From IMG/VR virus record IMGVR_UViG_3300031519_000166, positions 1 to 28,222 of that record: a stretch of 28,222 nucleotides of DNA; one strand, given 5' to 3'. Each line of letters opens with the position of its first letter. The stretch's first letter is position 1. Positions 1,615 to 28,222 of this stretch are shown one piece after another. The translations under genes and the position numbers were made by a program. This DNA is from a virus. Taxonomy: Duplodnaviria > Caudoviricetes. The notes below the pieces were generated by a model. It ran no database searches and had not been told where the DNA came from. It saw nothing but the letters and a program-made list of their open reading frames with translations.

Positions 1615-3413
1615 TATGCTACCAACCTACTTATATTGCGTGGATCTTTTATTACTTCTATTTTCTCTAGTAGAGGGTGTGACCAACCATGATTTACTAG
1701 ATAAGTATTGAGATTTTCTTCTAATAGGACTTCTACTAGCTTTTCTTTCCCTGTTTCATCTAGGACAGTCATAACTTCGTCCAAAAATAGAACATTAATC
1801 TGACTAGAAGATAAACTATTCATTAACTTACGAATTGCAAGAAGAGTAGCTGTATTTACTCTAGCAAGCTCTCCGCTCGAAAGTGCGAGAATGTCTATTA
1901 TCTTTCCGTGATCAGTTACTTCTACGTTAAGTTTGTCATTGTTCACAGCAAAATTTAAAGTAAAACGACCGTCTGAGAGTTCTGCTAGATACTCGCTGGT
2001 TAGTTCCTCTAGTTCTTTAACAAGGTTCTCTATTTTATACGCAATGAGTCCATTTGTGCTGAAAGCTTTCTTTAATATTTCAAGGTTGCCTCTCTTGACC
2101 CCTAGAACTTTATATCGATTTACTACTTCTGCTAGTTGTTTCTCAAAATCAGCCGTCTGCTCGGTTATAACTTCTATCTTAGCGTTAAAGGCTGAACGAA
2201 CATTATTCTCTCGCTGTAAAAGATCTATTTGATTCTTTTGGTGAGCGATTGTAGTTCTAATATCCGTAATACGAATCTTTAAAACTTCTTCATCAACTAA
2301 AACAGTAGGCATATCATTGTCTACAGATCGATAAAGCTCTTCCCATTCTTGTTGCTTCTTACTTTTCAAGACGAAGCTTTCATTGTTCTTTTGAATTTCT
2401 TTAATTTCCTTCTGGATATTAAGATGCTCGTCTTTTCTGGTTTGGACTTTTTCTTGTTCTTGGGAGATATGCTTTGTTTTAAAGTCTTCTGTAATGGGTT
2501 GTTCACAGGTAGGACATACATTTTCCAAGTTCTCCATTTTTCTTATTGCTTTTTCCCCTGAACTGATCGACCCCGCTATAGCTCCTAACTGTGCCTGCAA
2601 CTCATCATAAGAAATATGTTCAGAGGCTTCAATTGCTTGAATCTCCTGTATATTAATTTCTTTCAACAAACTTTTGAATTGGTTATTTTGAAAAATTTTA
2701 CGATTAGTTGATGCAATGTTTTTAATTTCAGTTGTAAGAGAACTATGTTCTTCCTCGTCAGCTTCCGAGATTTTCGGAAGCTCTACAAGTTCTTGTGGGG
2801 TAGTATCCGTTAGTTTGTTATTTTCTAACCATTTTTCTACTGTTGAAATACGCCCTTCGAGGTTTGCATACTCATGCTCAACTTCTCTTGAGGCTTCTTT
2901 AAAAATATCGAAGAGTTTTACATACTTCTCTAGTCCTAACAAGTCAATCAGAAATTTTTTACGATTAGCATCGGTTGCAGTAAGAAAATTCAAACTAGCA
3001 TTAGTATTCTGATATACGACTTGAGAGAAAGTTTTAAAGTCAATGCCTAAAACTTCCTCAATAGACTTATAAGTATTAGTAGCCGTATGACTACTAATAT
3101 CTTCTCCATTCTTAGTAAACTTTACTTTTAAATTAGACTTTCTTTGTAGATCTATTTCGTACTCGTCCGAACTTTTGGTAAAATTGAGACTGATAGAGTA
3201 ACCTACGTTTAATTCTCTGTTGGGAATATCGGCTTTCTTTATCCCCTTAGAGTTCTTATTAAACAATATTTCTTCTAGTATAAGAGGAATAGAAGATTTA
3301 CCTACTCCGTTTACCCCTAATATTTGGGTGAGTTGAGCACTTGATAAATCCAATGAGTTATTCTCCCCGTAAGAAAAACAGTTATTCCACTTCAAGGTTT
3401 TTAATATAATCAT
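1614..3413 (-). CDS. D13: SbcC/Rad50-like recombination ATPase (T5 D13-like)
   Basis: Walker A GVNGVGKS, coiled coil with CPTC zinc hook, LSSGE signature, LFLDE Walker B. Confidence 0.95.
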   Translation of the reverse strand: MIILKTLKWNNCFSYGENNSLDLSSAQLTQILGVNGVGKSSIPLILEEILFNKNSKGIKKADIPNRELNVGYSISLNFTKSSDEYEIDLQRKSNLKVKFTKNGEDISSHTATNTYKSIEEVLGIDFKTFSQVVYQNTNASLNFLTATDANRKKFLIDLLGLEKYVKLFDIFKEASREVEHEYANLEGRISTVEKWLENNKLTDTTPQELVELPKISEADEEEHSSLTTEIKNIASTNRKIFQNNQFKSLLKEINIQEIQAIEASEHISYDELQAQLGAIAGSISSGEKAIRKMENLENVCPTCEQPITEDFKTKHISQEQEKVQTRKDEHLNIQKEIKEIQKNNESFVLKSKKQQEWEELYRSVDNDMPTVLVDEEVLKIRITDIRTTIAHQKNQIDLLQRENNVRSAFNAKIEVITEQTADFEKQLAEVVNRYKVLGVKRGNLEILKKAFSTNGLIAYKIENLVKELEELTSEYLAELSDGRFTLNFAVNNDKLNVEVTDHGKIIDILALSSGELARVNTATLLAIRKLMNSLSSSQINVLFLDEVMTVLDETGKEKLVEVLLEENLNTYLVNHGWSHPLLEKIEVIKDPRNISRLVA

Positions 3414-4338
3414 TGTATATCCCTAATATAGCTGGTATTTTATCTTCGGTTATCTCTAGAATATACGTTAGATATTCTACTAGTTCTTCTCCTAAAGTCA
3501 TCTCTTTATCTAGAACTAATGCTGCTTCTGAGCTTCTCCTAACTACTTTCTTGTCAAGAAGATCAGAAGAAGACACTTTAGCTAAATCACCTAAATCCCC
3601 TTCTAGTTCGTAAATAACGTGGTCATAAAGCCCCGTGGTCATTTCCGCAGGGTTACTAACCGTTTTACGAATAAGTTGTGGTAGCTCTAACTTATCCCAG
3701 TACCAGTCCCAATCATCCAGTATCATTATTATTCCTGTTTCCACTTTAGATCTATGGAAACTAGTCGTCATAGGACTTCCTGGGTAGACTATATTTTTCT
3801 GGCAGTTGGAATGAGAATGTAAGTCTCCCGCAAAAACTACGGGGAACCCACTAAAGCGATCTAAGTCAACTTCCGGGGTCACATGAGGAGGTATTTCACC
3901 CCTCACATGAGTAAAAACCGGAAAGTTTTTATTAAGCATCTCGATAGAACCTTTCTTATGTAAGTCACAGTAGGGAAGAATACTAAAACCACGAGAGTCT
4001 TCGTAAGCTTCGTCTACTATAGTAACTAAACTATTTAAAGAAGTTGTTACTTCCTTTAAAGAATTAAAAAAAGTTTTATTCTTTCTAGTTGCTTCATGGT
4101 TGCCGTCATATATTAGAGTCTCTATAGTGCAGCCTCTAATAAAATGAAAGTATAGCTCCAACTCATCTAGAGTTGGTATTCTATCAAATATATCACCGCC
4201 AATAATATGCAAGTCTGCATCGTCTTCTAACAGGTAAATCTGGTGAAAGAAGCTATCATATCGAGCACGCGCCCAGTTTACGGGTACGTTTTTCTGCCCT
4301 AACTTTATATGCCAGTCGGCGGAGAATAATATCTTCAT
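3382..4338 (-). CDS. D12: SbcD/Mre11-like metallophosphoesterase nuclease (T5 D12-like)
   Basis: ADWH, GGDIFD, GNHE, GDLH and YPGSP motifs. Confidence 0.95.
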   Translation of the reverse strand: MKILFSADWHIKLGQKNVPVNWARARYDSFFHQIYLLEDDADLHIIGGDIFDRIPTLDELELYFHFIRGCTIETLIYDGNHEATRKNKTFFNSLKEVTTSLNSLVTIVDEAYEDSRGFSILPYCDLHKKGSIEMLNKNFPVFTHVRGEIPPHVTPEVDLDRFSGFPVVFAGDLHSHSNCQKNIVYPGSPMTTSFHRSKVETGIIMILDDWDWYWDKLELPQLIRKTVSNPAEMTTGLYDHVIYELEGDLGDLAKVSSSDLLDKKVVRRSSEAALVLDKEMTLGEELVEYLTYILEITEDKIPAILGIYNDYIKNLEVE

Positions 4339-4973
4339 TAGGATATATCAAATTCGTCAGAGATAGATTCGTCCTGGTTTGCGTCGGCACCTGCATTCAT
4401 AATGCGTTCCAACAGCTCTTTTTGAGCGTCTGGAGTAGGTCGCGGTAGCATCTCGGAAATAGGCTTTGCAGCACTACAAGCTTCTGATTCTGCATCAGTG
4501 AGAGGACGAATACCTTTTTGACTCTTCAAAGTCTGTAGCTGGTACTCTACGTTATACACGTTAGGCCCAGTTTTAGTTCTTTTGAAGTGAATATCCCAAC
4601 CAACAGTTGAATCTGTGGGATCTCCAAGATCTTCTGCTGCTACTAAAATTTGATCCATCAATTTCTTTTTCAGGTTAAGTACTTTTACTTTACCGTCACC
4701 TAAATCAATACACTGAATAGAGTAAGACCAACCACATTTAAGGTCGGGATAGTACTCTCGTACCCAATCTTTCTCGCTATTCATAAACTTTTCAGCGTCA
4801 CGGTCAAAAGATAAGCACTCCATAGGAATGTTCTTGTCGTTTTCGCCTTTAACCCAATAAATATACCTAGGGAGAAGATCTCCGAAGATTCGTACTGAGT
4901 TATCGCCATTTTTATAAGTGTACTGCTCTAAGTTAGATTTCTTAGCGCCGCCTGATGATGTCATAAATTTCAT
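4338..4973 (-). CDS. D11: Single-stranded DNA-binding protein (T5 D11-like)
   Basis: LPRYIYWVKG, CGWSY and GDPTD motifs, acidic C-tail (SDEFDIS), synteny. Start ATG 4973 behind AAGGA. Confidence 0.82.
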   Translation of the reverse strand: MKFMTSSGGAKKSNLEQYTYKNGDNSVRIFGDLLPRYIYWVKGENDKNIPMECLSFDRDAEKFMNSEKDWVREYYPDLKCGWSYSIQCIDLGDGKVKVLNLKKKLMDQILVAAEDLGDPTDSTVGWDIHFKRTKTGPNVYNVEYQLQTLKSQKGIRPLTDAESEACSAAKPISEMLPRPTPDAQKELLERIMNAGADANQDESISDEFDIS

Positions 4974-4984
4974 AATGTTTTCCT

Positions 4985-5374
4985 TTAGTGTGTGACTTCT
5001 TCCCAACAAAAGTATATTTGCTCATTTATTCGGGTAAGTAGCCTGTTGTAGTCGATTAGTTTTTGCCCTGTAGGTGCTAATAGCATATCTAGGGTAGTTT
5101 TGCGTGTGGCTTTATATTCAGCATAGCTGCGAAAACTAGCCAGTGCCACATACTGTGCTAGTTCCGGGTCTCCGAATTCTTTCCTATGTACTATAAGTTT
5201 TTCTGGGAACAATAAAAAACTATCCCCAGACCAATCCTGTAAGCTTAATTGATATGTAGCATCATATCTATTAATAGGTAAGTGTGGAAATGTTAAGTAT
5301 GAAATGATAGACAGTATGCCAGAAGTTTTACCTCCAGTATCCCTGTATATTTTTTCCCAGTTATAAAAAATCAA
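4985..5374 (-). CDS. Conserved T5-like hypothetical protein between D10 and D11
   Basis: ORF with YVALASFRSYAEY. Start moved to TTG 5374 because the track start (5428) is the -35 box of the upstream promoter. Confidence 0.7.
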   Translation of the reverse strand: MIFYNWEKIYRDTGGKTSGILSIISYLTFPHLPINRYDATYQLSLQDWSGDSFLLFPEKLIVHRKEFGDPELAQYVALASFRSYAEYKATRKTTLDMLLAPTGQKLIDYNRLLTRINEQIYFCWEEVTH

Positions 5375-5399
5375 AGTATAAGTCTCAAATTCAGTGTAT

Positions 5400-5439
5400 A
5401 TTATACAGGCAAACAGTAACCATGTCAAGAACTATTTTT
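5400..5439 (-). promoter_or_regulatory. sigma70-type promoter
   Basis: AAAAATAGTTC-TTGACA(5428-5423)-17 nt-TATAAT(5405-5400). Confidence 0.9.
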
Positions 5440-5441
5440 CG

Positions 5442-6731
5442 TCACATCTCCCTGAAATGTATCTTATAGTTCTGTTGCATATAGTGCCCTAAGCGAAGTT
5501 TTGCCTGCTTTTGTGCGGTCTTGCCCTTTAAGTTAATGTCAACTATTATAGGACTAGGTTTATTTGGGTATTCTCTAACTACTCTTCCTATTAACTGAGT
5601 TAACAGTGGAGTATTATTCACAGGAGTTGCTAGAATAAGACAGCTTAGAGGATTTACACTAATCCCCTCTGAGAAAATACTTTGAGTCCCTAGGAGTATA
5701 TTTACTTTTCCACTTTGAACTCGTTCTATTTTCTTCTCTCGCTCTTTAAGAGGAACTTTCCCAGTTATTAACTCGCAAGCCTCCCCTAATGTTTCACTTA
5801 TTCTAGTGAGAAAATGTACCCTGTCAGAAACTAGTAATACTTTGTGCCCCTTAGCTCTATAAGCTGCGGCCAAAAAACTTACAAGTTTTCCATACTCTTC
5901 TTGTTGGACTAAATCATTAATTCTATTAGCCCAAGGTATCTTAGCTCCATCCATAAAAACAATGTTACTTTGAATAACTTCTATAGTAGGCTCCATAAAG
6001 TTTTCTTTAGGGGGCGTAAACTTAGTATGACCAAAGTAATCTGGCATTAAAACATGCTTACCATCTTTTCGTTCTACAGTGCCAGAGAGCCCTATCTTAT
6101 ATCTAGCGTAGCTGGCATCTACTAGTCTATTAAAAGTATTTGCTGGAATATGATGGCACTCATCTATAATGATGCAGCCAAAGGATTTAGTAATCTGGTC
6201 TTTTATCTTATACAAGGTTTGTATATTGCCTACAACTATATCAGCCGTTAGGTTATGTTGTCCTGACCCTATTATCCCTGGCTCTATTCCAAAAACTTTT
6301 CTAATCTCTTTCTCCCACTGAGATCTTAAAGCAACTGTATGCGTAACTATTAAAGTCTTCTGACCAAGTTTAGCTGCTATAGCTAGGGCAGTAAAAGTCT
6401 TGCCCCAAGATACAAAAGCGTTAATAACCGCATTATCATCAAGAGCATCGTAAACATCCTGCTGGCTTTTCCTAAGCTCAAATCTGAACTTAGGAAACTT
6501 CACAGGTATCTCTACTCTTTTATCCTTAATTTCATATCCTGGAGGAATGAGATCAAATCTCCCAACAGGTATTGATACTAAGCCACTGCTAATTTTTCGT
6601 AAATTCTTAATGACTTGAGGAGGGTCGTCTCTCCTGTAGGTATCAATTTTATAGGTTAAAGCCTTATCTAGCTCTGGGAAGGTAGAAGGGTCTATATCCA
6701 TATAAATTCTGTTAGAAACTATTGCTTTCAT
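5442..6731 (-). CDS. D10: Superfamily 2 DNA helicase (T5 D10-like)
   Basis: SWGKT, DECHH, GLSGT, SEGIS and QLIGRVVR motifs. Confidence 0.93.
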   Translation of the reverse strand: MKAIVSNRIYMDIDPSTFPELDKALTYKIDTYRRDDPPQVIKNLRKISSGLVSIPVGRFDLIPPGYEIKDKRVEIPVKFPKFRFELRKSQQDVYDALDDNAVINAFVSWGKTFTALAIAAKLGQKTLIVTHTVALRSQWEKEIRKVFGIEPGIIGSGQHNLTADIVVGNIQTLYKIKDQITKSFGCIIIDECHHIPANTFNRLVDASYARYKIGLSGTVERKDGKHVLMPDYFGHTKFTPPKENFMEPTIEVIQSNIVFMDGAKIPWANRINDLVQQEEYGKLVSFLAAAYRAKGHKVLLVSDRVHFLTRISETLGEACELITGKVPLKEREKKIERVQSGKVNILLGTQSIFSEGISVNPLSCLILATPVNNTPLLTQLIGRVVREYPNKPSPIIVDINLKGKTAQKQAKLRLGHYMQQNYKIHFREM

Positions 6732-6895
6732 TTAGTCCACATTTCTTCTTCTAGGTTTCTTTTAGAGCGTTCTTCATTTCTTCGACTTACTACGAAGTTT
6801 TCCACCCCCGCTAGTCTCTCACTAATAGTCTCTACTCTACTTAGTAGTCTATCTATTTTCCTGTTTATTTCATCCATTTCTACATCGTATTTCAT
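6728..6895 (-). CDS. Small coiled-coil hypothetical protein (55 aa)
   Basis: Not in track. MKYDVEMDEINRKIDRLLSRV...EMWTK fills the gap, with ATGA overlaps at both ends. Confidence 0.75.
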   Translation of the reverse strand: MKYDVEMDEINRKIDRLLSRVETISERLAGVENFVVSRRNEERSKRNLEEEMWTK

Positions 6896-7566
6896 AGTAT
6901 ACCTTTTGTGTACTTCTCTGTAAGATAGCTCCTCACAAAGTTACTTCTTACAATGTCCGATATGTCGAACTCAATAAAATCAAACTCATTCATACCTTTA
7001 ATTATCTTCATAAAGTCTTTTAAACCACTATTTCTCAAGTCAGACTGGAAAAAATCGCCGCAAAAAATAATCCTACAATTTTTACCTACTCTAGTAATGA
7101 TACTGTCTAACTCATGGAAAGTCATATTTTGACACTCATCCACAATAATTACACTATCATTAAAAGTTGTGCCTCTAATATAAGAGGTGGTTAAAAAATT
7201 GATAACTCCTTTCTGCTTCAATTGTCCATAAGGATTATCTCCACGACTAAACAATTCTTGCATAATACTTACATAAGGAGCTTCGTAGACCTTAGATTTT
7301 TCATCTTCTGTTCCGGGAAGAAATCCCATTTCCCTTGTGGGGACGGCACTTCTAACTAAAACTATTCTACTATACTCTTCTTTCTGTAAATCATCTAATG
7401 CTAGATAAAGGGAAATAAATGTCTTACCTGTTCCTGCACACCCATGTAACATTAAATGCTTACTGGTGTCAAACACTTTGACCTGCGCCGTAGTTAGAGG
7501 CTCGATCTCTTTCAAATAGAAATTAAGTGCAGATAAAACGTCTCTCTTTGTATTCCTTCTTCCCAT
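6892..7566 (-). CDS. phoH: PhoH-family ATPase
   Basis: GCAGTGKT, MGFLPG, IRGTTF, DECQN, TRVG and GDFFQSD motifs. Confidence 0.95.
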   Translation of the reverse strand: MGRRNTKRDVLSALNFYLKEIEPLTTAQVKVFDTSKHLMLHGCAGTGKTFISLYLALDDLQKEEYSRIVLVRSAVPTREMGFLPGTEDEKSKVYEAPYVSIMQELFSRGDNPYGQLKQKGVINFLTTSYIRGTTFNDSVIIVDECQNMTFHELDSIITRVGKNCRIIFCGDFFQSDLRNSGLKDFMKIIKGMNEFDFIEFDISDIVRSNFVRSYLTEKYTKGIL

Positions 7567-8063
7567 TAAATTTTCCTTTTGCTATCTTCTAGCTTATCTT
7601 CGGACAAACTATACAACAGCCACGGGCTAGAGTCTAAATATAAGACCTGTGCCCAGTTTTTACCAGTAGGAGGTCTTCTTAATATAAAGGGAAAATTAAC
7701 TCCTTTTAACCATATTCTACTATGGGTATCAAAAAGTTCCTTCTTTTTTATTTTTAACGATACACACTTCTCAAAGCTAGTCTTAGTATACTCAAAGACT
7801 GCACCATTGGTGTCAATCAATACGGTGCTAGGAAACTTTACTAAGTCTAAAAACTCCCAGTATACTTTAGATATACGTTTAATTTTGTGTGGTGTCTGTA
7901 ACCTGCGTTGCCCTAGAGTATCCCCAGGCTGGTTCTTATCATCGACAACTAACTCATTCACTAGTAATAAGCCATCACGAACATAGAAGTCCTCGGTATC
8001 TAGAGCATAGACAGGAAACTTTACTAAACGAAGTACTTGTTTATACGTTAAAGATACTACCAT
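7566..8063 (-). CDS. Conserved T5-like hypothetical protein downstream of DNA polymerase
   Basis: FPVY and DDKNQPGDTLGQRRL motifs; likely start ATG 8063 overlapping the end of polA. Confidence 0.75.
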   Translation of the reverse strand: MVVSLTYKQVLRLVKFPVYALDTEDFYVRDGLLLVNELVVDDKNQPGDTLGQRRLQTPHKIKRISKVYWEFLDLVKFPSTVLIDTNGAVFEYTKTSFEKCVSLKIKKKELFDTHSRIWLKGVNFPFILRRPPTGKNWAQVLYLDSSPWLLYSLSEDKLEDSKRKI

Positions 8064-10389
8064 ATTTTTCGCTGAACTTACCCATTGAGTAGTCCTCTCC
8101 AATTTCAAAGTCACAGCCTACAGGCGCCCCAGAGATATAAATACCTCGGTCTTTCTGTATCTGTTCCTGTAGTATCTTACAGTACTCGTCAATTTCGTCG
8201 AGAGGTACTTCAGCTAGCACAGAGTCGTGTACAAGAGCAAACATTTTACTCTTCATATTTTTCTGTTCTATAATAGCATGAGCTTCCATAGCCCCGATTA
8301 AGTTTATATCAGAAGCCGCAGACTGAACTAGGAAGTTAATTCCTGATCTTACTCCATGACTTTGCGCTTGAGTATTGTGATGATGCTTTTCCCAACCGCC
8401 TCTGCCGACGCTCTTGTAACTTTGCGACCCACGATCGAGCACTGGAATTTTCGCTTCAGGCAACCTTCTCTTTCTTCCAAAGTGAGAGTATATATATCCA
8501 TGAGTATTTATATCATCTTTCATATTGTCCAACCACTCTCTCAGTTTCCAGAATGCACCAAAGTACTCTTTAATAATTTCTGACGCTTCTGTAGGGCTTA
8601 ACTTTCCACCGTCTTTAGTGACCTGCTCACTAATTTTCTTTGGTCCAGCACCATACATGATACCAAAGGTTACAGCCTTAGCAGCTTGGCGATATGTTTT
8701 ATACTGTTCTGCAACGTCTTCGATTTCACAATCTAACTTAAACACCTTGTGAGCGATCGTAGAGTGAAAATTACCTCCAGAACGGAATACGTCCTGAAGT
8801 TCAAGGTCGTCTGCTAGAACTGCGGCAACATATACTTCGGCAGTTGTTAAATCCATTGCAACAATCTTATGCCCCGCGCTCGCTTTAATACATCCTTTCA
8901 CAATAGGATTATCACGAGGAAGCTGTTGCATATTCAGTTTACCACTAGAAGACAGTCTTCCAGAGGTAGTTCCGTGTAAATTAAAGTTAGTTCTCAAGTG
9001 ACTATCTCGATCAAGTTGAGGAATAATCTTATCAAGATAAGTATTCTTAATCTTAGTTTTCTTACGAACGTCTAGGATTAGTTTAGGAATTTCATGCTGA
9101 AGAGACAACTTATCTAATACTTCCGCATTAGTAGAGTTTTCTCCTTTAGCAGTCTTAATTCCAACTGGCTCTAGCTTTAAATAGTCGAATAGTAACTTTC
9201 TTAATTGAAGAACACTGTTAGGATTAAACGTCTTCTCTTCTTCTTTTTGAAACTTTATTACAGCTTCGTGAGCCTGTAAAGTTTCTACTGCTGCATAGAT
9301 TTCTTTCTCCATAAGAGTTTGTCCAGCAACTAGTCTATCTACATCAAAGGGGACACCGTTATCTTGCATAGAGATAAGAAATCTACATGCAGGCAACAAT
9401 ATATCTTTGTATACGCGCATTAACTTGGGGTTACCTTTCTGTAATGCTCGTTCGAATTTCTCAAAAATTGTAAAGGTAGCACAGGCATCAATGGCAGCAT
9501 AAGTCTGCATAACCTCAAAAGGAATCCACTCCCATTTGAAATCATCTTTTAATACACCGTGTTGTTTACGATAATCATCCATCCAAGTATACATAGGTTT
9601 CTCGTAGTCACCGTAATCTGTATACCTCATAGCTAGCATCTTCAGGCCGTGAGTGCCTGGGTTTTCATCAAGCATATAGTGCAAGAGCATTGTATCTTCA
9701 AACCGTGAGATTTTCACATTGAAGTGATACTCAAACATTGGAATATCGAACTTAGCATTATGGAATACCATACGCTTCTTGTCAAACAACTCCTGAAGTT
9801 TCTCTTCTACGGAGTCATCAATAGTATCGGCATTAATATAAGCACCTGCATCAAGTTTATAACACAAGCTAATACCAAGAATATGCCCATTCCGAGGATA
9901 CAGACCAGTAGTCTCTGAGTCGATTCCGATATAGTCGAGGGGCGAGTCAATACATCTCTGAATGTACTCCAAAGTTCCCTCAGTCGTTGTAATACCGACA
10001 AATTTTTCGTCATTTATTTCTACCTTCTTCTTGTCCCCCGATATGTATCCTTGTATGTTGGCTCTAGCAGTATCATACGCCTTCTTAGCTTCTGGTTTAA
10101 AGGAGAGCATTGCGGGATTAATAATAGGTAAAAATTTATCGTCTACAATAGTTCCTGCATACTGCATAACTTGAGTTACTTTCGTGAAGTATTTTAAGGC
10201 TTCTGAACCCACAACAATAACCCACTCATAAGCGTCAACATCAATTTGAATATCTACATCTTTTTTAAGAACTTTCGTTAGTGTAGGATCTGAAGCGAGT
10301 GAATAAACGTCTATCTCAAACGCTTTATCAAAGTTCTGCTCCCAATCCATCTTACCAGGTTTAGATTGTACTAGGGCTACCTTAGCCAT
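8041..10389 (-). CDS. polA: Family A DNA polymerase with 3'-5' exonuclease
   Basis: Exo DSETTG, HNAKFD, YAAID; pol TTSGRLSS, DLTTAEV (motif A), RQAAKAVTFGIMYG (motif B, Phe at the E. coli 762 position), LVHDS (motif C). Confidence 0.97.
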   Translation of the reverse strand: MAKVALVQSKPGKMDWEQNFDKAFEIDVYSLASDPTLTKVLKKDVDIQIDVDAYEWVIVVGSEALKYFTKVTQVMQYAGTIVDDKFLPIINPAMLSFKPEAKKAYDTARANIQGYISGDKKKVEINDEKFVGITTTEGTLEYIQRCIDSPLDYIGIDSETTGLYPRNGHILGISLCYKLDAGAYINADTIDDSVEEKLQELFDKKRMVFHNAKFDIPMFEYHFNVKISRFEDTMLLHYMLDENPGTHGLKMLAMRYTDYGDYEKPMYTWMDDYRKQHGVLKDDFKWEWIPFEVMQTYAAIDACATFTIFEKFERALQKGNPKLMRVYKDILLPACRFLISMQDNGVPFDVDRLVAGQTLMEKEIYAAVETLQAHEAVIKFQKEEEKTFNPNSVLQLRKLLFDYLKLEPVGIKTAKGENSTNAEVLDKLSLQHEIPKLILDVRKKTKIKNTYLDKIIPQLDRDSHLRTNFNLHGTTSGRLSSSGKLNMQQLPRDNPIVKGCIKASAGHKIVAMDLTTAEVYVAAVLADDLELQDVFRSGGNFHSTIAHKVFKLDCEIEDVAEQYKTYRQAAKAVTFGIMYGAGPKKISEQVTKDGGKLSPTEASEIIKEYFGAFWKLREWLDNMKDDINTHGYIYSHFGRKRRLPEAKIPVLDRGSQSYKSVGRGGWEKHHHNTQAQSHGVRSGINFLVQSAASDINLIGAMEAHAIIEQKNMKSKMFALVHDSVLAEVPLDEIDEYCKILQEQIQKDRGIYISGAPVGCDFEIGEDYSMGKFSEKYGSIFNV

Positions 10390-11212
10390 ATAAATTCTTC
10401 CTTAAAGTTTCAATATATTTACTGTCTAGAGACCCCGGGTCTCTATCATTTGGTAACTTTACTATTTTTGTAGGGAAATTACCGGCTATTTTTCTTACTT
10501 GCTCGGCTCCTTCTTTTCCCGCATGGTCTCCATCAAACATTATATCAAGACCTTGTACTCCAGAAATCTTCAGAAAGTTAAGTTTTGTTTCTGAAAAGTT
10601 CTTCACTCCAAAACAACATATAGCATTCTCTAGTCCGTTGTCATGAAGGTTTAACATATCAAATATGCCTTCTACTAGAATGACTCGCCCCTGAAGTGGG
10701 CGAACATTAGGGAACAAAGGCAGCTTAGCCCCGCTGGGGTGGAACATATATTTGTTGGGTAGAGTGTCTGTATCATCTCTACCTTGAAACGCAACAACCC
10801 TTCCAGAAGTGTCCGTAATAGGAAAGTTAATCCTACCACTAAAAGGCGAAACGTGATGGCGAAAAGCGCCAAACTTCTTATACGTTTCTGGTTTTATGCC
10901 CCTGTAATTACCTATGTATGGCATAGCCTGTTCTGGAAGCTGTAGGCCCACCCCAGCGGACCGCAAATTCGCAATAATTCTATTAATCTGTTCTCTTTTA
11001 ACGGCTGTGGTACTATAATCTACGTCGTAATGAGCAAATAGATTACCTTTATACCCACAGGAAAAACAATGGAACACACCTAGAACTTTATCAATTCTCA
11101 TACTTGGGCTTCTATCTTCATGCTCAGGATTTAAGCACGCCACTAGTACATCCCTGCCAGACAGCTTATAAAATATACCTCTGTCTTCTAATAATTCTAT
11201 AACTTGACTCAT
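10382..11212 (-). CDS. DNA primase (CHC2 zinc finger + TOPRIM)
   Basis: CLNPEHEDRSPS...CFSCG, VEGIFD, FDGDHAG, DPG. Confidence 0.95.
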   Translation of the reverse strand: MSQVIELLEDRGIFYKLSGRDVLVACLNPEHEDRSPSMRIDKVLGVFHCFSCGYKGNLFAHYDVDYSTTAVKREQINRIIANLRSAGVGLQLPEQAMPYIGNYRGIKPETYKKFGAFRHHVSPFSGRINFPITDTSGRVVAFQGRDDTDTLPNKYMFHPSGAKLPLFPNVRPLQGRVILVEGIFDMLNLHDNGLENAICCFGVKNFSETKLNFLKISGVQGLDIMFDGDHAGKEGAEQVRKIAGNFPTKIVKLPNDRDPGSLDSKYIETLRKNLYG

Positions 11213-12567
11213 GCAAAACCGCCTTCAATATCGTCATAAGACTCTTCCCCAGAATCAGCGGAAGGTATTGAGGCACTTTCAGGACCAAATCTTAAAGAGT
11301 CCCAGTCAACCAAAGAGGTAAAGTTTTTCTCTTCAGCGTTTCTCATTTTTGTACACTCGAAGGTAACAGCATTTTCTTTGACACCTTCTTTATTATAGTA
11401 AGTTTCTAATACAAAAGCGGCATCCGCAGCATCTAAGATACCTTTTGCGAATCTAGCTTCTCCTGTAGCATCAATTTGATACGGAGAAACCATCAAAACA
11501 TCGTAGTCTTGCGCAAAAGTCTTCAACGCTTTGGATACCTCTATTTGTTCTGTCCAATCATACTGTCCCATTCTATTAGGGACGGAAGATCGCTTCACTT
11601 GATTAATATAATCTACTAAGATCACTCTAGGTTTAAGCCTAGCCATTTTCTTATCAAGCTCAGTACGGATTTGACCAAGATTAAGAGAAGGTGCATATAC
11701 TATATCTATTTGCTTTTCCCGTAAAGGCTTAGCAATTAGTTCAGCATGATACTTATCAAAGTCTCTGTGGAACAGGTACTTTGTGTATGCCTTCTCGCCA
11801 TCTTCGTATCGTCCAGACCACCACAGCGCAAGGGTCTCCCACTCATTTACTGAGAGGTTACGAGTCCTTAGAGCTTTCTGTGGTATACCTGTAGCAATAG
11901 AACAGCATCTCTGCATAGTAGCTCGCGCGGTCATTTCTATAGTGAAATATATCACGGAGTTACCAGCTTCATATACTGTAGAAGCAATGTTAGCACAAGT
12001 AACAGATTTACCTGTACCTTTCTTGCCTCCTATTAATACAAGCTCGGTAGGCCCAAAAGTTTGTATGCGGTCGTAGTCTAAGTTTAAGCCCAGAGGAACA
12101 TTTCGTATCAACGATTCTTCTGGCTCAAACAAGGACATTCTTCGCATATCCTCATTTACGTCTTTCAACTCAACTTTCTGTTCTACTTCCATTACAATGT
12201 TCTGTAAGCCCTCGATATTCTCGGAAGCTGACTCCATTGCGATAGAGTTAGTAAGATAGGTCTCTAGTTGATTCATAATTTCTATTTGAGTGAACTCATT
12301 TTTGAGGTACTCAAGTAAAGTCTTACCTTCAATATCCACTTCCTCAACTTTTTCTAGCGCAAAGAATCTTTCTCTAAGGTTAGAGTCTCTGATAGCTAGA
12401 TTAGCTGCGGGGAAAGAAGGTAGGGCACTGTGTGTGCTTACATAGGAGTCTAGATAGTCCCACACAGGTGAGAACTCTACGGGGAAATAGTGTTTTTGAG
12501 ATGCAGCCCACGTATCCATGTCGCCGTTAGCGATTATAGATTTGAGCAGTACACTTGCAAGATTCAC
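11209..12567 (-). CDS. Replicative DnaB-like helicase
   Basis: GGKKGTGKS, FTIEM, LVDYINQ, KMRN. Confidence 0.93.
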   Translation of the reverse strand: MNLASVLLKSIIANGDMDTWAASQKHYFPVEFSPVWDYLDSYVSTHSALPSFPAANLAIRDSNLRERFFALEKVEEVDIEGKTLLEYLKNEFTQIEIMNQLETYLTNSIAMESASENIEGLQNIVMEVEQKVELKDVNEDMRRMSLFEPEESLIRNVPLGLNLDYDRIQTFGPTELVLIGGKKGTGKSVTCANIASTVYEAGNSVIYFTIEMTARATMQRCCSIATGIPQKALRTRNLSVNEWETLALWWSGRYEDGEKAYTKYLFHRDFDKYHAELIAKPLREKQIDIVYAPSLNLGQIRTELDKKMARLKPRVILVDYINQVKRSSVPNRMGQYDWTEQIEVSKALKTFAQDYDVLMVSPYQIDATGEARFAKGILDAADAAFVLETYYNKEGVKENAVTFECTKMRNAEEKNFTSLVDWDSLRFGPESASIPSADSGEESYDDIEGGFA

Positions 12568-12599
12568 TATTACTATCTCCGTAAGAACTGTTAGGCATT

Positions 12600-12634
12600 A
12601 AAAAGCTAGGACGCGACCGAAGACCCGCCCTAGC
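12600..12634 (-). terminator. Intrinsic terminator after D5
   Basis: Imperfect GCTAGG...TTCG...CCTAGC hairpin followed by TTTTT on the minus strand. Confidence 0.75.
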
Positions 12635-12651
12635 AAGGGTACAACGGTAGA

Positions 12652-13374
12652 CTAGCCAGCAGTTTTGGCTGCTTTGGCTGCTCCATCATAGTTTGATGCA
12701 GTTAAACCGCGTCGTGTCAACATAGTTTTAACACCTCGGGCAGTTTTACCAATCGCTTCAGCGATTTCTTCAACAGTCAGACCGTTAACGTCAACGCCTT
12801 CGAGAGGATCAACGCGCGATGCAGCTTTGCTTTCTTTCTGTGCAGGAATCGCACTGATTTCACCAGAACGTAACAAAGAAAGAGCTTTGCCTCGGATTTG
12901 ATTAACAGTTCGGCCAAGAGCCTCTGCAATATCTTCCAAGAAAGCGCCGTTACTTGCGTGGTCAACAAAGATAGTTTCTTCTGCTTCAGTAAAGGTACGA
13001 GCAGCTTCTACTTTAGGAGTAGGTTTGACGTGCTCGGTCAGTTGCATTGATAACAACTTGCCTTGGATCTGCTTTGAAGAAAAGTTTCCGCCTTCAAAAG
13101 CGTCTGCGATCTCACCGTAAGTGTGAGCGCCTGCATTGTCAGATACAAACTGACGCAACGTAGACTCTTGTGCGTCTGTAAAGGCACGAGTGGTTACAGT
13201 TGCTGAAGATTCAACGGCAACGTCCATCTTGCGAAGTTTAGACGCGATAGAGCGAGGTGAGGTTTCTAGCTGGTTAGCAGCTTCTACGACTGTAGCGTAG
13301 GATACTGGAGACTCATCGCCTACAAACTCTACAAGAGATGCGGTGCGTTCGTCGTTCCACTTTGGAATAGCCAT
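12652..13374 (-). CDS. D5: DNA-binding protein with repeated HTH units (T5 D5-like)
   Basis: RSIASKLRK, QIQGKLLS, QIRGKALSLLR and RGVKTMLTRRGL..YDGAAK resemble T5 D5; synteny. Confidence 0.9.
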   Translation of the reverse strand: MAIPKWNDERTASLVEFVGDESPVSYATVVEAANQLETSPRSIASKLRKMDVAVESSATVTTRAFTDAQESTLRQFVSDNAGAHTYGEIADAFEGGNFSSKQIQGKLLSMQLTEHVKPTPKVEAARTFTEAEETIFVDHASNGAFLEDIAEALGRTVNQIRGKALSLLRSGEISAIPAQKESKAASRVDPLEGVDVNGLTVEEIAEAIGKTARGVKTMLTRRGLTASNYDGAAKAAKTAG

Positions 13375-13377
13375 ATT

Positions 13378-14130
13378 TTAATTTCCTAATAATTGGTTAA
13401 GGTTTGTTATGATAGAGACTCCACTGTCTCTAGCTTTTTTAGTTTTTGAAGATTCTACTTGACTCTCATTAACGAGGATAGTTACCTCCTTTGTAAAGGA
13501 ACTTTTTACTATATAGCCTCGACTAATAAGAGCTTTTTCTGCTTCTGCTTTCGTTTTGAAAGATGTTAGTTTCCCACTAATACATATCACACCTTTCGGC
13601 TCAATAACAGAAACTACTTCGTCGGACTCAAATGCAAAAGGTAGCCACTTGTAGTCGCGGAGAAACGTGGTATTGTACCAGTCCAGCAAGTTATTGCTGG
13701 CCTTAGGGCCAAGCCCCGCTTTAGTGCACGCCTCCTCATTAAAGTCATAGATACTACTTACTACTGAACATAATTTGGAAGAAGCCGATTTGCCTATCAG
13801 TGGGATAGAAAAAGCGGGTAGAATTTCAGAAAGACTAGCTTTCTTAGACTCTTGTATCTCGTCAAATAGTTTAGTAGCAAGTTTCTCGGAGTTAAGAGAC
13901 TCTACCATATCGCCCAAACTCAGCTCATATATTTGTGGTATTGAAGTAATTCTGAGTTTCTGGATAGATGATGGGCCTAGTCCCTTGATTTTCAAAGTAG
14001 TAGAGAAGTGCTCTATCAGCTTATGAGTTTTAGACTCACAAGAAGTATTATAGCAGAACAACTGGTCGTTTTCCCACACCAAAGGCGTGGAACAACTGGG
14101 ACAGTGTGTTGGGGCTACAATTTCTTTCAA
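13378..14130 (-). CDS. ligB: NAD-dependent DNA ligase, C-terminal subunit (Zn finger, HhH, BRCT)
   Basis: CPSC...CYNTSC, IKGLG, IPLIG, ICISGKL..F (BRCT), SSKTKKA; TTG start behind AGGAG. Confidence 0.92.
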   Translation of the reverse strand: MKEIVAPTHCPSCSTPLVWENDQLFCYNTSCESKTHKLIEHFSTTLKIKGLGPSSIQKLRITSIPQIYELSLGDMVESLNSEKLATKLFDEIQESKKASLSEILPAFSIPLIGKSASSKLCSVVSSIYDFNEEACTKAGLGPKASNNLLDWYNTTFLRDYKWLPFAFESDEVVSVIEPKGVICISGKLTSFKTKAEAEKALISRGYIVKSSFTKEVTILVNESQVESSKTKKARDSGVSIITNLNQLLGN

Positions 14131-14157: not shown

Positions 14158-14197
14158 ATTATACGGGGTTTAAGTTGAAAAGTCAAGAACTATTTTT
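14158..14197 (-). promoter_or_regulatory. sigma70-type promoter for ligB-D5
   Basis: AAAAATAGTTC-TTGACT(14186-14181)-17 nt-TATAAT(14163-14158). Confidence 0.88.
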
Positions 14198-22030: not shown

Positions 22031-22069
22031 AAAATAAGTCTTGACATACAACCCGGAACGTCCTATAAT
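22031..22069 (+). promoter_or_regulatory. sigma70-type promoter, rightward half of a divergent pair
   Basis: AAAATAAGTC-TTGACA(22041-22046)-17 nt-TATAAT(22064-22069). Confidence 0.9.
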
Positions 22070-25794: not shown

Positions 25795-25826
25795 TTCTTG
25801 ACAAGAATCCTCTCTGCTAGTATAAT
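25787..25826 (+). promoter_or_regulatory. sigma70-type promoter
   Basis: AAAAATAGTTC-TTGACA(25798-25803)-17 nt-TATAAT(25821-25826). Confidence 0.9.
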
Positions 25827-25847: not shown

Positions 25848-26129
25848 ATGGTAATTTCAGGAAGTATTAATTACTCTTACTCGGGCAGGAAGCGTAGTGT
25901 GAAAAGGACTCGGAAGACCGAACCAGTGTTTCGCCCCGCTTCCGAGCCTTTACTTGTAGCCGCTAGAGAGGATAAGTATTATCCTTCTGCGCCTATGACA
26001 AAGTATAGACCTCCAGCGGATACTTCGTATAAGCAAGAGGTTAGTAAGAACTACACTGTAGCAATAGCCTATAATAAGGGTGGTTATATGGTTATACCTA
26101 AATCAAATATTAAGGATATTGGACGGTGA
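25848..26129 (+). CDS. Phage hypothetical protein with IAYNKGGYMVI motif
   Basis: GGGAG RBS; basic protein with C-terminal AYNKG motif. Confidence 0.78.
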   Translation: MVISGSINYSYSGRKRSVKRTRKTEPVFRPASEPLLVAAREDKYYPSAPMTKYRPPADTSYKQEVSKNYTVAIAYNKGGYMVIPKSNIKDIGR

Positions 26130-26404
26130 GGCACTACAAAGGATTATTTGAGTCGGCGGAAAAACATTTAGAAGTTAAAAATACTATAATGGCTCTTGAG
26201 TTTATTGAGTTTAGTTACGGTAAGAAGTTAAGCCAACTAACGCGTGAAGAAGTAAAAGAGTTGCAAGACTTTGCATTTCTTCATGTTAATTCAGTGATGT
26301 GTTTTGGTATGAGAAAGTGTATCAAAAGGTGGGAAGAGTTTAATGAAACCACCGTGGAGGGAGGTGAGTACTTGAAAGAGCTACATCTTCGAGAGGGGGA
26401 CTAA
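26126..26404 (+). CDS. Hypothetical protein
   Basis: GTGA-coupled ORF. Confidence 0.65.
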   Translation: MRHYKGLFESAEKHLEVKNTIMALEFIEFSYGKKLSQLTREEVKELQDFAFLHVNSVMCFGMRKCIKRWEEFNETTVEGGEYLKELHLREGD

Positions 26405-26607
26405 TGAATAACGATACGTTCGATGAATTAATGAGGAGTGTTAAGGAGATGGACGACATAGTTAAAGGGTTACCTCAGTCGACTCGGGTAAGCAAAATTA
26501 GAATGAACGTCCAAACTTTATCAAGAGGATGGACTAAACGACTCAAAAAGATTCGTGAGACCAAACAGCGTCAAGCGGGTAAAAAGGATAGTGAAGATGG
26601 CATATAG
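26404..26607 (+). CDS. Hypothetical protein
   Basis: TAATG-coupled ORF with GAGG RBS. Confidence 0.62.
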   Translation: MNNDTFDELMRSVKEMDDIVKGLPQSTRVSKIRMNVQTLSRGWTKRLKKIRETKQRQAGKKDSEDGI

Positions 26608-26977
26608 CGAGCAAGTTATGGATCATTACAACAATCCCCGCAACGTCGGTAAGCTAGATAAAGGATCTCAATCCGTGGGCACTGGTATGGTAGGCGCTCC
26701 GGCTTGTGGAGACGTTATGGTACTACAGATTGCAGTAAGTGCAGAAGGTATCATTGATGAAGCTAAATTTAAAACTTATGGGTGTGGAAGCGCTATTGCT
26801 TCTAGCTCCTTACTAACCGAATGGGTGAAGGGTAGAACTTTAGAAGAGGCAGGGAGTATAAAGAATACTGACTTAGCTACTGAACTTGCACTTCCTCCCG
26901 TTAAGATTCACTGTAGTGTACTAGCTGAAGACGCTATAAAAGCCGCAATAAAGGATTACAAAGAGAAACAAGTATGA
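26597..26977 (+). CDS. iscU: Fe-S cluster scaffold protein IscU
   Basis: MAYSEQVMDHYNNPRNVG, GAPACGDVM, FKTYGCGSAIASSS, LPPVKIHCSVLAEDAIKAA. Confidence 0.97.
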   Translation: MAYSEQVMDHYNNPRNVGKLDKGSQSVGTGMVGAPACGDVMVLQIAVSAEGIIDEAKFKTYGCGSAIASSSLLTEWVKGRTLEEAGSIKNTDLATELALPPVKIHCSVLAEDAIKAAIKDYKEKQV

Positions 26978-27228
26978 TGGATAGATTGTATCAAGAAGCA
27001 GAGAGCATTGTTTTAGCGATGTGGGACGAAGAACCAGAGGAGATTGCAGCAGAAATTTCTGTTCAGCTTTCAATTAGCGCAGATTATGCGTGGGACTTAG
27101 TTCAGCAAGTTATTGTAAACGAAATTCGTATTGAACAAGATTACAATGACGGCGACAATGATTTATTTGATTGGGACGGAGACGCATTAACCTCCGCAGG
27201 ATTTGGAACTGATGAAGACTACCTCTAA
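26974..27228 (+). CDS. Highly acidic hypothetical protein
   Basis: ATGA-coupled to iscU; C-terminal DGDALTSAGFGTDEDY. Confidence 0.75.
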   Translation: MMDRLYQEAESIVLAMWDEEPEEIAAEISVQLSISADYAWDLVQQVIVNEIRIEQDYNDGDNDLFDWDGDALTSAGFGTDEDYL

Positions 27229-27397
27229 TATTATTGATTTTAGTAAGTATAGAAAAGTTAAACAGAGATGTATCTCCGTGGTAGTAAACGACAGTTTCGA
27301 CACTGCTACTTTCACCTACACTATAACCAATGATGAGGGAGAAATATTTCAGTTTGAGATACCTTATCCAAATTATGATAAGTATTTTGACAGCTAA
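27212..27397 (+). CDS. Hypothetical protein
   Basis: MKTTSNIIDFSKYRK...; ends just before the next promoter. Confidence 0.6.
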   Translation: MKTTSNIIDFSKYRKVKQRCISVVVNDSFDTATFTYTITNDEGEIFQFEIPYPNYDKYFDS

Positions 27398-27439
27398 GAA
27401 AAAATACTTCTTGACATGCAACCTATTTACCGTTATAAT
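27398..27439 (+). promoter_or_regulatory. sigma70-type promoter driving the non-coding region
   Basis: AAAAATACTTC-TTGACA(27411-27416)-17 nt-TATAAT(27434-27439). Confidence 0.92.
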
Positions 27440-27445
27440 AATATC

Positions 27446-27948
27446 CATAGACAAGAGAGCTCTTGTTTAGAATCCACTAGAGATACTACCTAGTTATATG
27501 TAGTATCGCCCACACCCCTCAGGCGTAAATGAGTGGAGGATTCTAACTTCCTCCTAGTTAGACGGCGTAGTTGCTACGATAAGTGACTCTTCGGAAGGCA
27601 GTCCGATGCGGATACAAACTGCCCTTGGGGAGCTAATGACCCCGTTGCCCCATAAACTGGTACCAATTCCTATGGGCACGTCGAGTATTCCAGGTTATAG
27701 ACGACGCTAAAACATAAACGCTGGCGAGAAGAGAACTCGTAGACCATCTCCGTGTATGCACGTCACGTTAATCAAAAGGATCTAATCCGGGTGTAGGTTT
27801 TAAGGCTTTTTCCCTTGATAAAAGGCCACTATTTCCAAGGTGAGGTAAACTGTCGTGGAGTAGGTAAGACTTTTTACGAGAAAAGCACTACGCCTCACCG
27901 AACACCGGGGGTGAGCATTCTGCCTTAAAGCGTAACGCGCCCCCACCT
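27446..27948 (+). ncRNA. Candidate large (~500 nt) multi-domain structured non-coding RNA
   Basis: No ORF of 60 aa or more, starts at the predicted +1, about 15 predicted helices including two long-range closing stems. Confidence 0.68.
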
Positions 27949-27963
27949 ATTATAGAGGTCTTT

Positions 27964-28143
27964 ATGTATATTTGTATTTGTAACAATATATCCAGTAAAG
28001 ACTTAGAAAGAGACCCCTTTCTTATTCATAAAGTGGGGTCTAAATGCGGCAAATGTGTTGAGAGAAGTCAACAAGTAGTTTGCGGAAACCTTAATGTATT
28101 ACTAGAACCGGAGGACAGACTTCCAGCCAGTCAAATGGCATAG
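27964..28143 (+). CDS. Mini Bfd-like [2Fe-2S] ferredoxin (59 aa)
   Basis: Not in track. MYICICNNIS...VGSKCGKC resembles Bfd MYVCLCN...VGxxCGKC; GAGG RBS. Confidence 0.72.
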   Translation: MYICICNNISSKDLERDPFLIHKVGSKCGKCVERSQQVVCGNLNVLLEPEDRLPASQMA

Positions 28144-28178
28144 CCTTACAGGAAGGCACAGCACTATGGAGCAATTTC

Positions 28179-28222
28179 ATGGCTGTACGCAAGAAAAGAA
28201 CAGTTAAGAAGAAAGATTCTCG
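28179..28222 (+). CDS. Basic hypothetical protein, N-terminus only (runs off window)
   Basis: GGAG RBS then MAVRKKRTVKKKDS. Confidence 0.6.
   Translation, partial: MAVRKKRTVKKKDS

Follow-up and report, generated by a model that had tools for sequence, protein, structure and literature searches.

What kind of transcript, if any, arises from a stretch of about 500 nt without a credible gene near the end of a marine phage contig, and does it work as an RNA? The question is raised by IMG/VR virus record IMGVR_UViG_3300031519_000166, whose 28,222 bp (estimated completeness 27%) were analysed over their full length and are called the window below. An earlier note on this sequence had read positions 27446-27948 as a single "ornate" non-coding RNA (ncRNA) of about 500 nt, built of three domains. 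The locus is a genuine, conserved and promoter-driven phage ncRNA candidate that is undescribed within the literature searched, but its shape differs from that reading. The predicted ncRNA gene covers about 385 nt (27446..27835, both ends being predictions) and consists of a 5' hairpin, a variable 5' domain, a near-invariant core and an end hairpin; a separate element with two hairpins follows at 27839..27944. Both of these, and the promoter, the hairpins and the downstream 59-aa gene described below, lie on the + strand.

Homologues were collected from the loci of the downstream gene of 59 amino acids (aa), from the loci of the upstream 84-aa gene, and by motif scans of viral and metagenome contigs. 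The element is present in 109 loci, which reduce to 33 distinct sequences; the metagenome motif scan returned 80 stretches, 32 of which contain the element by nhmmer. In one viral-contig motif scan, 27 of 46 stretches were chance matches; from two further scans of this kind, L163 was dropped for want of an nhmmer match and L293 as unrelated. A BLASTN search with 27380-27990 against 50,697 deposited phage records gave zero matches. In 185,579 prokaryote species genomes, one motif scan returned no stretch and a second returned nine, all of them chance matches (only one has an nhmmer match, of 32 nt with E = 2e-4). Among 80 viral loci bearing IscU, the RNA was found in none by blastn or nhmmer, the sole match being one promoter-like stretch of 39 nt. 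The homologues are confined to one lineage of uncultured marine T5-like phages and make up four clades, which we call window-type, L114-type, L288 and L174-type.

The RNA gene is preceded by a sigma-70 consensus promoter, TTGACA-17-TATAAT, at 27411..27439, in which the -35 and -10 hexamers match at 12 of 12 positions with a spacing of 17 bp. The perfect promoter claimed by the earlier note is therefore there, and from its position transcription is predicted to start near 27446-27447. Of the 33 distinct homologous sequences, 30 have the same TTGAC-N-TATAAT promoter ahead of the element; in the remaining three the contig stops short of it. Across the window, 11 TTGAC-N18-TATAAT sites with at most one mismatch are found against 0.95 expected, and near-consensus sites occur on both strands (e.g., 5400-5428 and 14158-14186 on the - strand, 22041-22069 and 25798-25826 on the + strand). 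The 11 sites are a family of strong early-type phage promoters, as in T5, and the promoter of the RNA is genuine in type and not specific to this locus. The G+C content is 0.47-0.48 in the region and about 0.39 in its flanks.

The four clades differ in how the element is put together. The window-type clade carries the full element, with 19 distinct copies of 87-93% identity over 611 nt. L114-type phages have the same promoter and keep the core, but without helix H4 and its linker; their 5' domain cannot be aligned with that of the window, their end hairpin is different, and the end hairpin is followed in order by an open reading frame (ORF) for a 49-aa membrane protein, the 3' element and a BFD-like gene. 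L288 has a 5' domain like that of L114, a much more diverged core and only a remnant of the 49-aa ORF, and its 3' element precedes a lysine/arginine-rich gene. In the L174-type, the promoter is joined directly to the 3' part of the core alone (H5 to the end hairpin T), and the 49-aa ORF comes next. Because the 49-aa gene splits T from the 3' element in L114, the L174-type has the 3' sub-module alone and a different gene follows in L288, the locus is made of at least two units, the predicted RNA from ~27446 to ~27835 and the separate two-hairpin element at 27839-27944. The third "domain" of the single 500-nt RNA is accordingly separable from the rest.

The gene that intervenes encodes a predicted membrane protein of 49 aa (MPG[MI][VI]IAMILVG...) and follows the RNA in two clades (L114:1462-1611 and L174:1334-1483); it is decayed in L288 (near 4120-4170), is absent from window-type phages, and its product has no PHROG match. 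A metagenome copy, L205, bears an insertion of ~150 nt after H3 that resembles a degenerate partial duplicate of the H4-H5-AUCUCC segment, and a second insertion of ~70 nt after hairpin T. Judging from L205, duplication within the RNA is evidently tolerated, or is a way in which the RNA grows.

The predicted RNA begins with hairpin P1 (27449..27468) at its extreme 5' end, which folds in all four full-length types (window, L086, L114 and L288) although their sequences differ, and continues with hairpin P2, GATACTAC/GTAGTATC (27482..27507). The conserved core (27587..27795) holds H1 to H7. H1 (27597-27623, with an inner hairpin at 27602-12) is still paired in L288, where a G-C pair has become G-U and the loop is longer, and H2 (27627-43) is absent there. 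H3 (27646-78) has a 16-nt loop with GGUACC and keeps 7-8 of its 8 pairs, an A-U pair having changed to U-G in L288. H4 (27679-27706) is variable and missing from two clades. H5 (27725-39) changes from CGAG/CTCG to CGTG/CACG across clades. H6 (27757-95), which encloses H7 (27778-88), keeps its pairing across clades through two-sided changes and occurs in four forms, TGCAC/GTGTA, AGCAA/TTGCA, TGCAC/GTGCA and CGAGC/GCTCG, the last at the equivalent place in L288; H7 changes only via G-U. A conserved block within the core, ACAUCUCC, is kept in all full-length clades. The end hairpin T (27804..27827) pairs GGCUUUUU with AAAAGGCC and is followed by ACUAUUUCC, which gives it the look of a weak terminator; the tail at this place is ACUUUUAAU in L114 and ACCAUUAAU in L288, and both of these have a different hairpin of 10 bp at the position of T. 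P1 and an end hairpin are present in every full-length clade with unrelated sequences. In the 3' element, hairpin A spans 27839-27899 (with an inner GTAG/CTAC at 27860-91) and hairpin B spans 27907-27944, the latter with an invariant stem and a loop of varying length.

To what extent do sequence changes respect this structure? The local helices listed by the earlier note are present at the coordinates it gave, and we scored 17 local helices (96 pairs) in 18 distinct window-type sequences. In this set, 97.3% of the cells of the helix table are paired, and two-sided changes occur in 6 pairs (24 cells). Covariation scores 0.074, a value that 0 of 500 shuffles attain (shuffled mean 0.048), and the score falls to 0.010-0.026 when partners are slid by 1-3 columns; the related sequences are few and close, and these counts do not amount to a formal test. 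The variation is located in P1, P2, H6, H7 and hairpin A. Pair 27452/27465 of P1 is U-A in nine sequences, A-U in seven and C-G in two; in P2, two pairs have changed on both sides and 93.8% of cells are paired, and in T 100% are. In hairpin A, the outer GGTGAGG/CCTCACC becomes GATGAGG/CCTCATC, GGTAAGG/CCTTACC or, through G-U, GGTGGGG, and the middle GTAG/CTAC becomes GCAG/CTGC. G-U accounts for 84 of 1720 cells, and an origin of the RNA from the + strand fits because these cells would be A-C mismatches on the other strand. Taken together, the compensatory changes in the aligned sequences suggest that P1, P2, H3, H5, H6, T and the 3' hairpins are real, and compensatory pairing, as expected of a structured ncRNA, is found in P1, P2, H3, H5, H6 and hairpin A.

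The long-range part of the earlier structure fared differently. Its three closing helices, TAGAATCC/GGATTCTA, TAAGTGAC/GTCAC-G-TTA and GGTGT/ACACC, vary at 6 of 21 pairs among the 18 window-type sequences, and all of these changes break pairs while none is compensatory. GGTGT/ACACC has a local rival in H6 (TGCAC 27757-61 with GTGTA 27791-95), and the two changes that break it in five sequences keep H6 paired. A long-range helix proposed by RNAalifold, GCCCACACCCC/GGGTGTAGGT, was rejected as well, since G-to-T and T-to-C changes break it in five sequences and favour H6. The covariation expected by the earlier note is thus seen in several local hairpins and not in its closing helices. From sequence complementarity, a pseudoknot is possible between CUCUUC (27587-92) and GAAGAG of the H5 loop in the window and L114 types; this pairing is not kept in L288, and its partner is lacking in L174.

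Folding energy was compared with that of shuffled sequences. The z-score of the minimum free energy is -2.06 for 27446-27948 (3 of 100 shuffles as good), -2.33 for 27446-27840 (0 of 100) and -1.85 for the L114 homologue. Because these z-scores are modest, the reverse strand of 27446-27948 reaches -2.58 and L288 only -0.19, folding energy alone is weak evidence; the better-than-shuffled folding anticipated earlier is modest in this region and absent in L288.

The non-coding status of the region, which the earlier note had stated as about 500 nt with no credible ORF, was confirmed. The longest + strand ORF within 27446-27955 is 37 aa, indels of 1, 2 and 7 nt (not multiples of three) lie within the region, and no ORF is kept across the clades in a comparison among them. 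The sole recurring + strand ORF (MTPLPHKL...) has 20, 24, 29, 34 or 47 aa with a C-terminus that differs per strain, and L288 has neither this ORF nor any other + strand ORF of at least 20 aa. We therefore regard it as very improbable that a small protein, such as MTPLPHKLVPIPMGT... (+ strand) or PIGIGTSLWGNGV... (- strand), is encoded here. Of the four substitutions in 27645-27666, three leave the amino acid of the + frame unchanged, and GGGGAG lies 3 nt ahead of the ATG, as a gene would have it, but the strain-dependent lengths result from non-triplet indels, and the ATG is missing from L288 together with the entire H2 segment. The similarities of - strand ORFs fall in several frames simultaneously, and therefore point to conservation at the nucleotide level. 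All small-ORF ideas were rejected on the grounds of variable length, non-triplet indels and absence in L288.

Could the RNA belong to a known class? A search of Rfam 15, the check that the earlier note had proposed, gave 0 matches at gathering score in the whole window, and just three chance-level matches to microRNA and long non-coding RNA families at E<=10 over 27350-28050. None of the Rfam 15 covariance models of RNase P RNA, group I/II introns, 6S RNA, signal recognition particle (SRP) RNA, GOLLD, ROOL, HEARO, OLE, raiA and IMES matched, ARAGORN found no tRNA or transfer-messenger RNA (tmRNA) in the window, and the related loci match no Rfam 15 family apart from tmRNA and tRNA. The window is thus free of the tRNA, tmRNA, RNase P, intron, GOLLD and ROOL matches that the earlier note had named. 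The string GCU AAU GAC CCC GUU GCC CCA UAA, which reads ANDPVAP*, recalls the start of a tmRNA tag, and L114-type phages have a true permuted tmRNA ~500 nt downstream. A degenerate or unrecognised tmRNA, RNase P RNA or group I/II intron is nevertheless hardly credible here: the covariance models are silent even at E<=10, and neither they nor ARAGORN detect a tRNA-like domain (acceptor stem, T-arm and CCA end). The frame of the supposed tag sits in the H2 segment, a part that L288 lacks, and L114-type phages hold this RNA and a genuine tmRNA together; the tag idea was rejected. A self-splicing intron was rejected too, since the RNA has its own promoter and splits no host gene: the upstream ORF stops at 27397, the promoter comes next, and the downstream ORF has its own Shine-Dalgarno sequence and start.

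The core is conserved beyond its surroundings. In a comparison of the window with L084, L085, L086 and L088, 90-91 of 92 positions are identical in 27588-27679 (98-99%) and 72-74 of 75 in 27726-27800 (96-99%), against 62-93% in the flanking genes (IscU 77-78%, orf84 93%, orf64 82% and the BFD-like gene 62-89%). Other parts are more variable, with 87-90% in the 5' domain, 59-87% in H4 and 84-97% in the 3' element.

Evidence that the core exists as RNA comes from public sequencing runs. A word search with 27000-28222 (1,223 nt) found 24 runs, spread over 14 studies and with 23 recorded as RNA, that share 7-20% of the words, a share close to the size of the conserved core. Depth is here one mean per assembled contig, summed over strains, which makes it unfit for ranking genes, and gaps between contigs (e.g., 27485-27529 in X5) prove nothing on processing or ends. 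In two estuarine metatranscriptomes of study P2, contigs of the core are ~40- to 700-fold deeper than contigs of neighbouring genes by this measure. X5 has depths of 19,418-57,968 over 27530-27709, with 249 upstream and 95 downstream; in finer bins, depth reaches 70,002 at 27603-25 and is 4,964 at 27764-86 and 91 at 27856-78. X17 has 4,443-13,748 over 27580-27671, with 326.6 for a contig running from the upstream gene to 27614 and 28.6 for a downstream contig. In three other studies the contigs of the locus lie over the RNA only, with further pieces on IscU genes of other organisms: X1 (study P1) has one contig over 27503-27754 without mismatches at depth 2, X7 (P3) one over 27489-27684 at depth 2.4, and X8 (P4) one over 27404-27765 at depth 4.4. 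We take the excess of core RNA as real because contamination with DNA cannot create a local peak. There are good signs that the core is far more abundant as RNA than its neighbours, with ends and strand that are predicted and a ratio that is only approximate. Stability is a likelier source of the excess than promoter strength, to judge from the neighbouring genes, which sit behind promoters of the same type. As to the discrete, abundant transcript sought by the earlier note, the abundance is seen in the very deep core contigs of X5 and X17, and the discreteness depends on two predicted ends.

What would such an RNA do? We give about an even chance to its being the product of an ncRNA gene of a narrow marine T5-like phage lineage, with a stable transcript of ~385 nt that is predicted to act in trans through the near-invariant core. 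Transcription would start near 27446, and hairpins P1 and T would protect the RNA at its two ends and let it accumulate, while a minority of transcripts would pass T and run through the 3' element (27839-27944) into the downstream genes. Loops and single-stranded blocks that are conserved may then bind a conserved host or phage partner. Such recognition is suggested because all full-length clades keep H1 (loop and bulge included), H3 and its loop AAAYUGGUACCRAUUCC, GAGAA of the H5 loop, and ACAUCUCC; the self-complementary GGUACC might in addition let two copies pair loop to loop. Only tentatively, and with some doubt, do we go further and consider a new class of RNA of marine T5-like phages, ~385 nt long with an almost invariant core and among the most abundant phage transcripts of coastal waters. 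Serving as a decoy, a scaffold or a catalyst, such an RNA would target a conserved host factor or self-assemble via its GGUACC loop.

Several observations weigh against a stable RNA acting in trans. H1, H2, the H4 stem, H5 and hairpin B are invariant among the 18 window-type sequences, and 42 of 100 shuffles fold as well as L288. The invariant core gathers reads of all strains, so that depth ratios are inflated; both strong profiles (X5 and X17) come from one study, and two runs with one long contig have a flat depth across the region (X16 of study P8 with 18.5 and X19 of study P10 with 52.2) and are uninformative either way. The X8 contig begins at 27404, 42 nt 5' of the predicted start, which could be due to read-through from upstream or to DNA. 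A terminator scan does not call T, which speaks against a canonical terminator. Near-identical and unalignable segments also meet at sharp borders, which suggests that modules were recently exchanged and that this explains part of the conservation. In the extreme case, the identity would result from recent exchange of a mobile, mosaic non-coding module without selection on RNA function, and the hairpins would be incidental. The abrupt edges between blocks of 96-99% identity and unalignable 5' domains and end hairpins, the ~150-nt (apparently part-duplicated) and ~70-nt insertions of L205, and the gain or loss of H4 as a whole block would all fit such a history. We nevertheless consider it improbable, since compensatory and G-U-preserving changes occur inside the window-type clade, the diverged L288 retains H1, H3, H5 and an equivalent of H6, the promoter is kept wherever it is visible, and depth in RNA libraries is very high. 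Recent exchange could account for part of the identity, but neither for the abundance nor for the compensatory changes.

The chief competing reading is a leader acting in cis, which we see as possible but on balance unlikely: in the manner of the lambda 6S transcript from pR' or the put RNAs of HK022, the structured RNA made from a strong promoter would end at T or modify the polymerase, and thereby set transcription into the 49-aa gene, the 3' element and the BFD-like and lysine-rich genes. That the abundant species would then be the terminated by-product is likewise a doubtful proposition. A scan of 26000-28222 found no further promoter-like site and hence none for the downstream genes, so that the RNA is also their leader, a further point against an exclusive role in trans. 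The L174-type has just the 3' sub-module (H5, ACAUCUCC, H6/H7 and T) between promoter and 49-aa ORF, and in L114 the same ORF stands directly after T with no promoter seen. The downstream depths (95 in X5 and 28.6 in X17), far under that of the core, match efficient termination. Yet T has no proper U tract in the window and L288, and the 5' two thirds (H1 and H3) are kept in three clades with no visible tie to an expression platform. The downstream genes differ as well, being BFD-like in two clades and lysine/arginine-rich in L288, and point to no particular ligand or factor; the RNA does lie in a leader, as a riboswitch would, but no platform is evident.

The phage itself deserves some description. 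Its family-A DNA polymerase (8041-10389, - strand) has ~42% identity to polymerases of Demerecviridae (T5-like phages), and other genes of the window code for two helicases (one DnaB-like, one DEAD/ResIII), for ThyX and for an IscU/NifU-like protein. Judged by its polymerase, the phage appears to be a distant relative of T5, and the earlier label "T5-like" is fair on those terms only. The related contigs are all pieces of genomes of ~100 kb. Genes related to iron-sulphur (Fe-S) clusters flank the RNA. On one side, at 26555-26977, an IscU/NifU_N-like Fe-S scaffold protein is encoded (E = 1.6e-50), relatives of which are carried by ~3,400 viral stretches. On the other, the 59-aa gene (27964..28143), with a GAGG Shine-Dalgarno sequence at 27955-58, encodes a small, cysteine-rich product that is weakly BFD-like [2Fe-2S] (Pfam Fer2_BFD E = 0.002, under the curated cut-off); it is kept in 6 loci. 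Further 3', small and very lysine/arginine-rich ORFs stand in series in all clades (L086:3204-3776; window 28170-28222), one of which matches phrog_7595 (function unknown). A PHROGs search of 13 neighbouring proteins gave nothing informative.

Other loci of the lineage have features of their own. A permuted (two-piece) tmRNA gene lies just after the BFD-like gene in L114 (1910-2208, +) and also in L143, L195 and L227, whereas the window-type loci L084-L086 and L088 have no tmRNA at that place. The L114-type tmRNA scores 94-96 bits with Rfam tmRNA_permuted and 62 bits with alpha_tmRNA, and ARAGORN gives it the tag ANDEVYDLAIAA*; the alpha-type score may be a clue to the host group. Two-piece tmRNAs of marine phages have already been described (PMC9004378), and that description covers the L114-type tmRNA. 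Alone among the relatives, L288 has a 215-aa 2OG-Fe(II) oxygenase gene (2764-3411) inserted upstream of the RNA, where it separates genes of 85 and 74 aa. In L174, ~440 nt without an ORF but with strong hairpins lie 5' of the promoter (701-1140, or about 7290-7730 of G001:C1) and may be another RNA locus.

If the abundance holds in raw stranded reads, this RNA would exceed the mRNAs of its own phage by one to two orders of magnitude in natural communities, the signature behind the discoveries of IMES, GOLLD and ROOL. Few functions of phage-encoded ncRNAs are described, and none for marine T5-like phages in the literature searched. With its compact size, its defined promoter and the variants that occur in nature (the 5' domain exchanged, H2 or H4 lost, the 3' sub-module alone), the element would lend itself to tests by deletion and complementation once a host is in culture. 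The literature searches yielded no description of this RNA and Rfam 15 has no matching family, so that the locus is an undescribed candidate within these searches; the earlier suggestion of an undescribed class is a tentative reading, and the "ornate" long-range architecture attached to it is not supported. A survey of IMG/VR, the same data source, lists 8,495 candidate structured RNA motifs of 29-151 nt (PMC10690425), and single hairpins of the locus could be among them; three 21-nt strings of the RNA, also in RNA letters, are absent from six of its supplementary files, the alignment files (1, 2 and 4) being outside the search.

How does the RNA compare with known systems? IMES-1 to IMES-4 are reportedly orphan abundant marine RNAs of Rfam. 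The phage RNA shares with IMES, GOLLD and ROOL that it is structured, free of ORFs, of unknown function, known from phage or uncultured marine sequence, and present in metatranscriptomes at very high abundance; it differs in having no covariance-model similarity to them at gathering score or E<=10, in being shorter (~385 nt), in its occurrence so far in one phage lineage, and in a core structure that is predicted. GOLLD, ROOL and OLE RNAs are the subject of a cryo-electron microscopy study (PMC12286853). That the phage RNA forms multimers, as its GGUACC loop might allow, is a guess.

Cis-acting leader RNAs of phages include the terminated pR'-tR' 6S transcript of lambda and the put RNAs of HK022. 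As in these, a structured RNA and a hairpin come directly after a strong constitutive promoter and ahead of genes in the same orientation, but the present RNA is much longer and its end hairpin is a poor terminator. T5 and T4 encode stable small RNAs beside their tRNA genes. Here too the phage is of T5 type, with early-type consensus promoters and a predicted stable RNA of unknown function, and tRNA-Trp and tRNA-Met lie within a few kb in an L174-type relative; the present RNA is much larger than those of T5 and T4, and stands apart from them in having no match among the deposited phage records.

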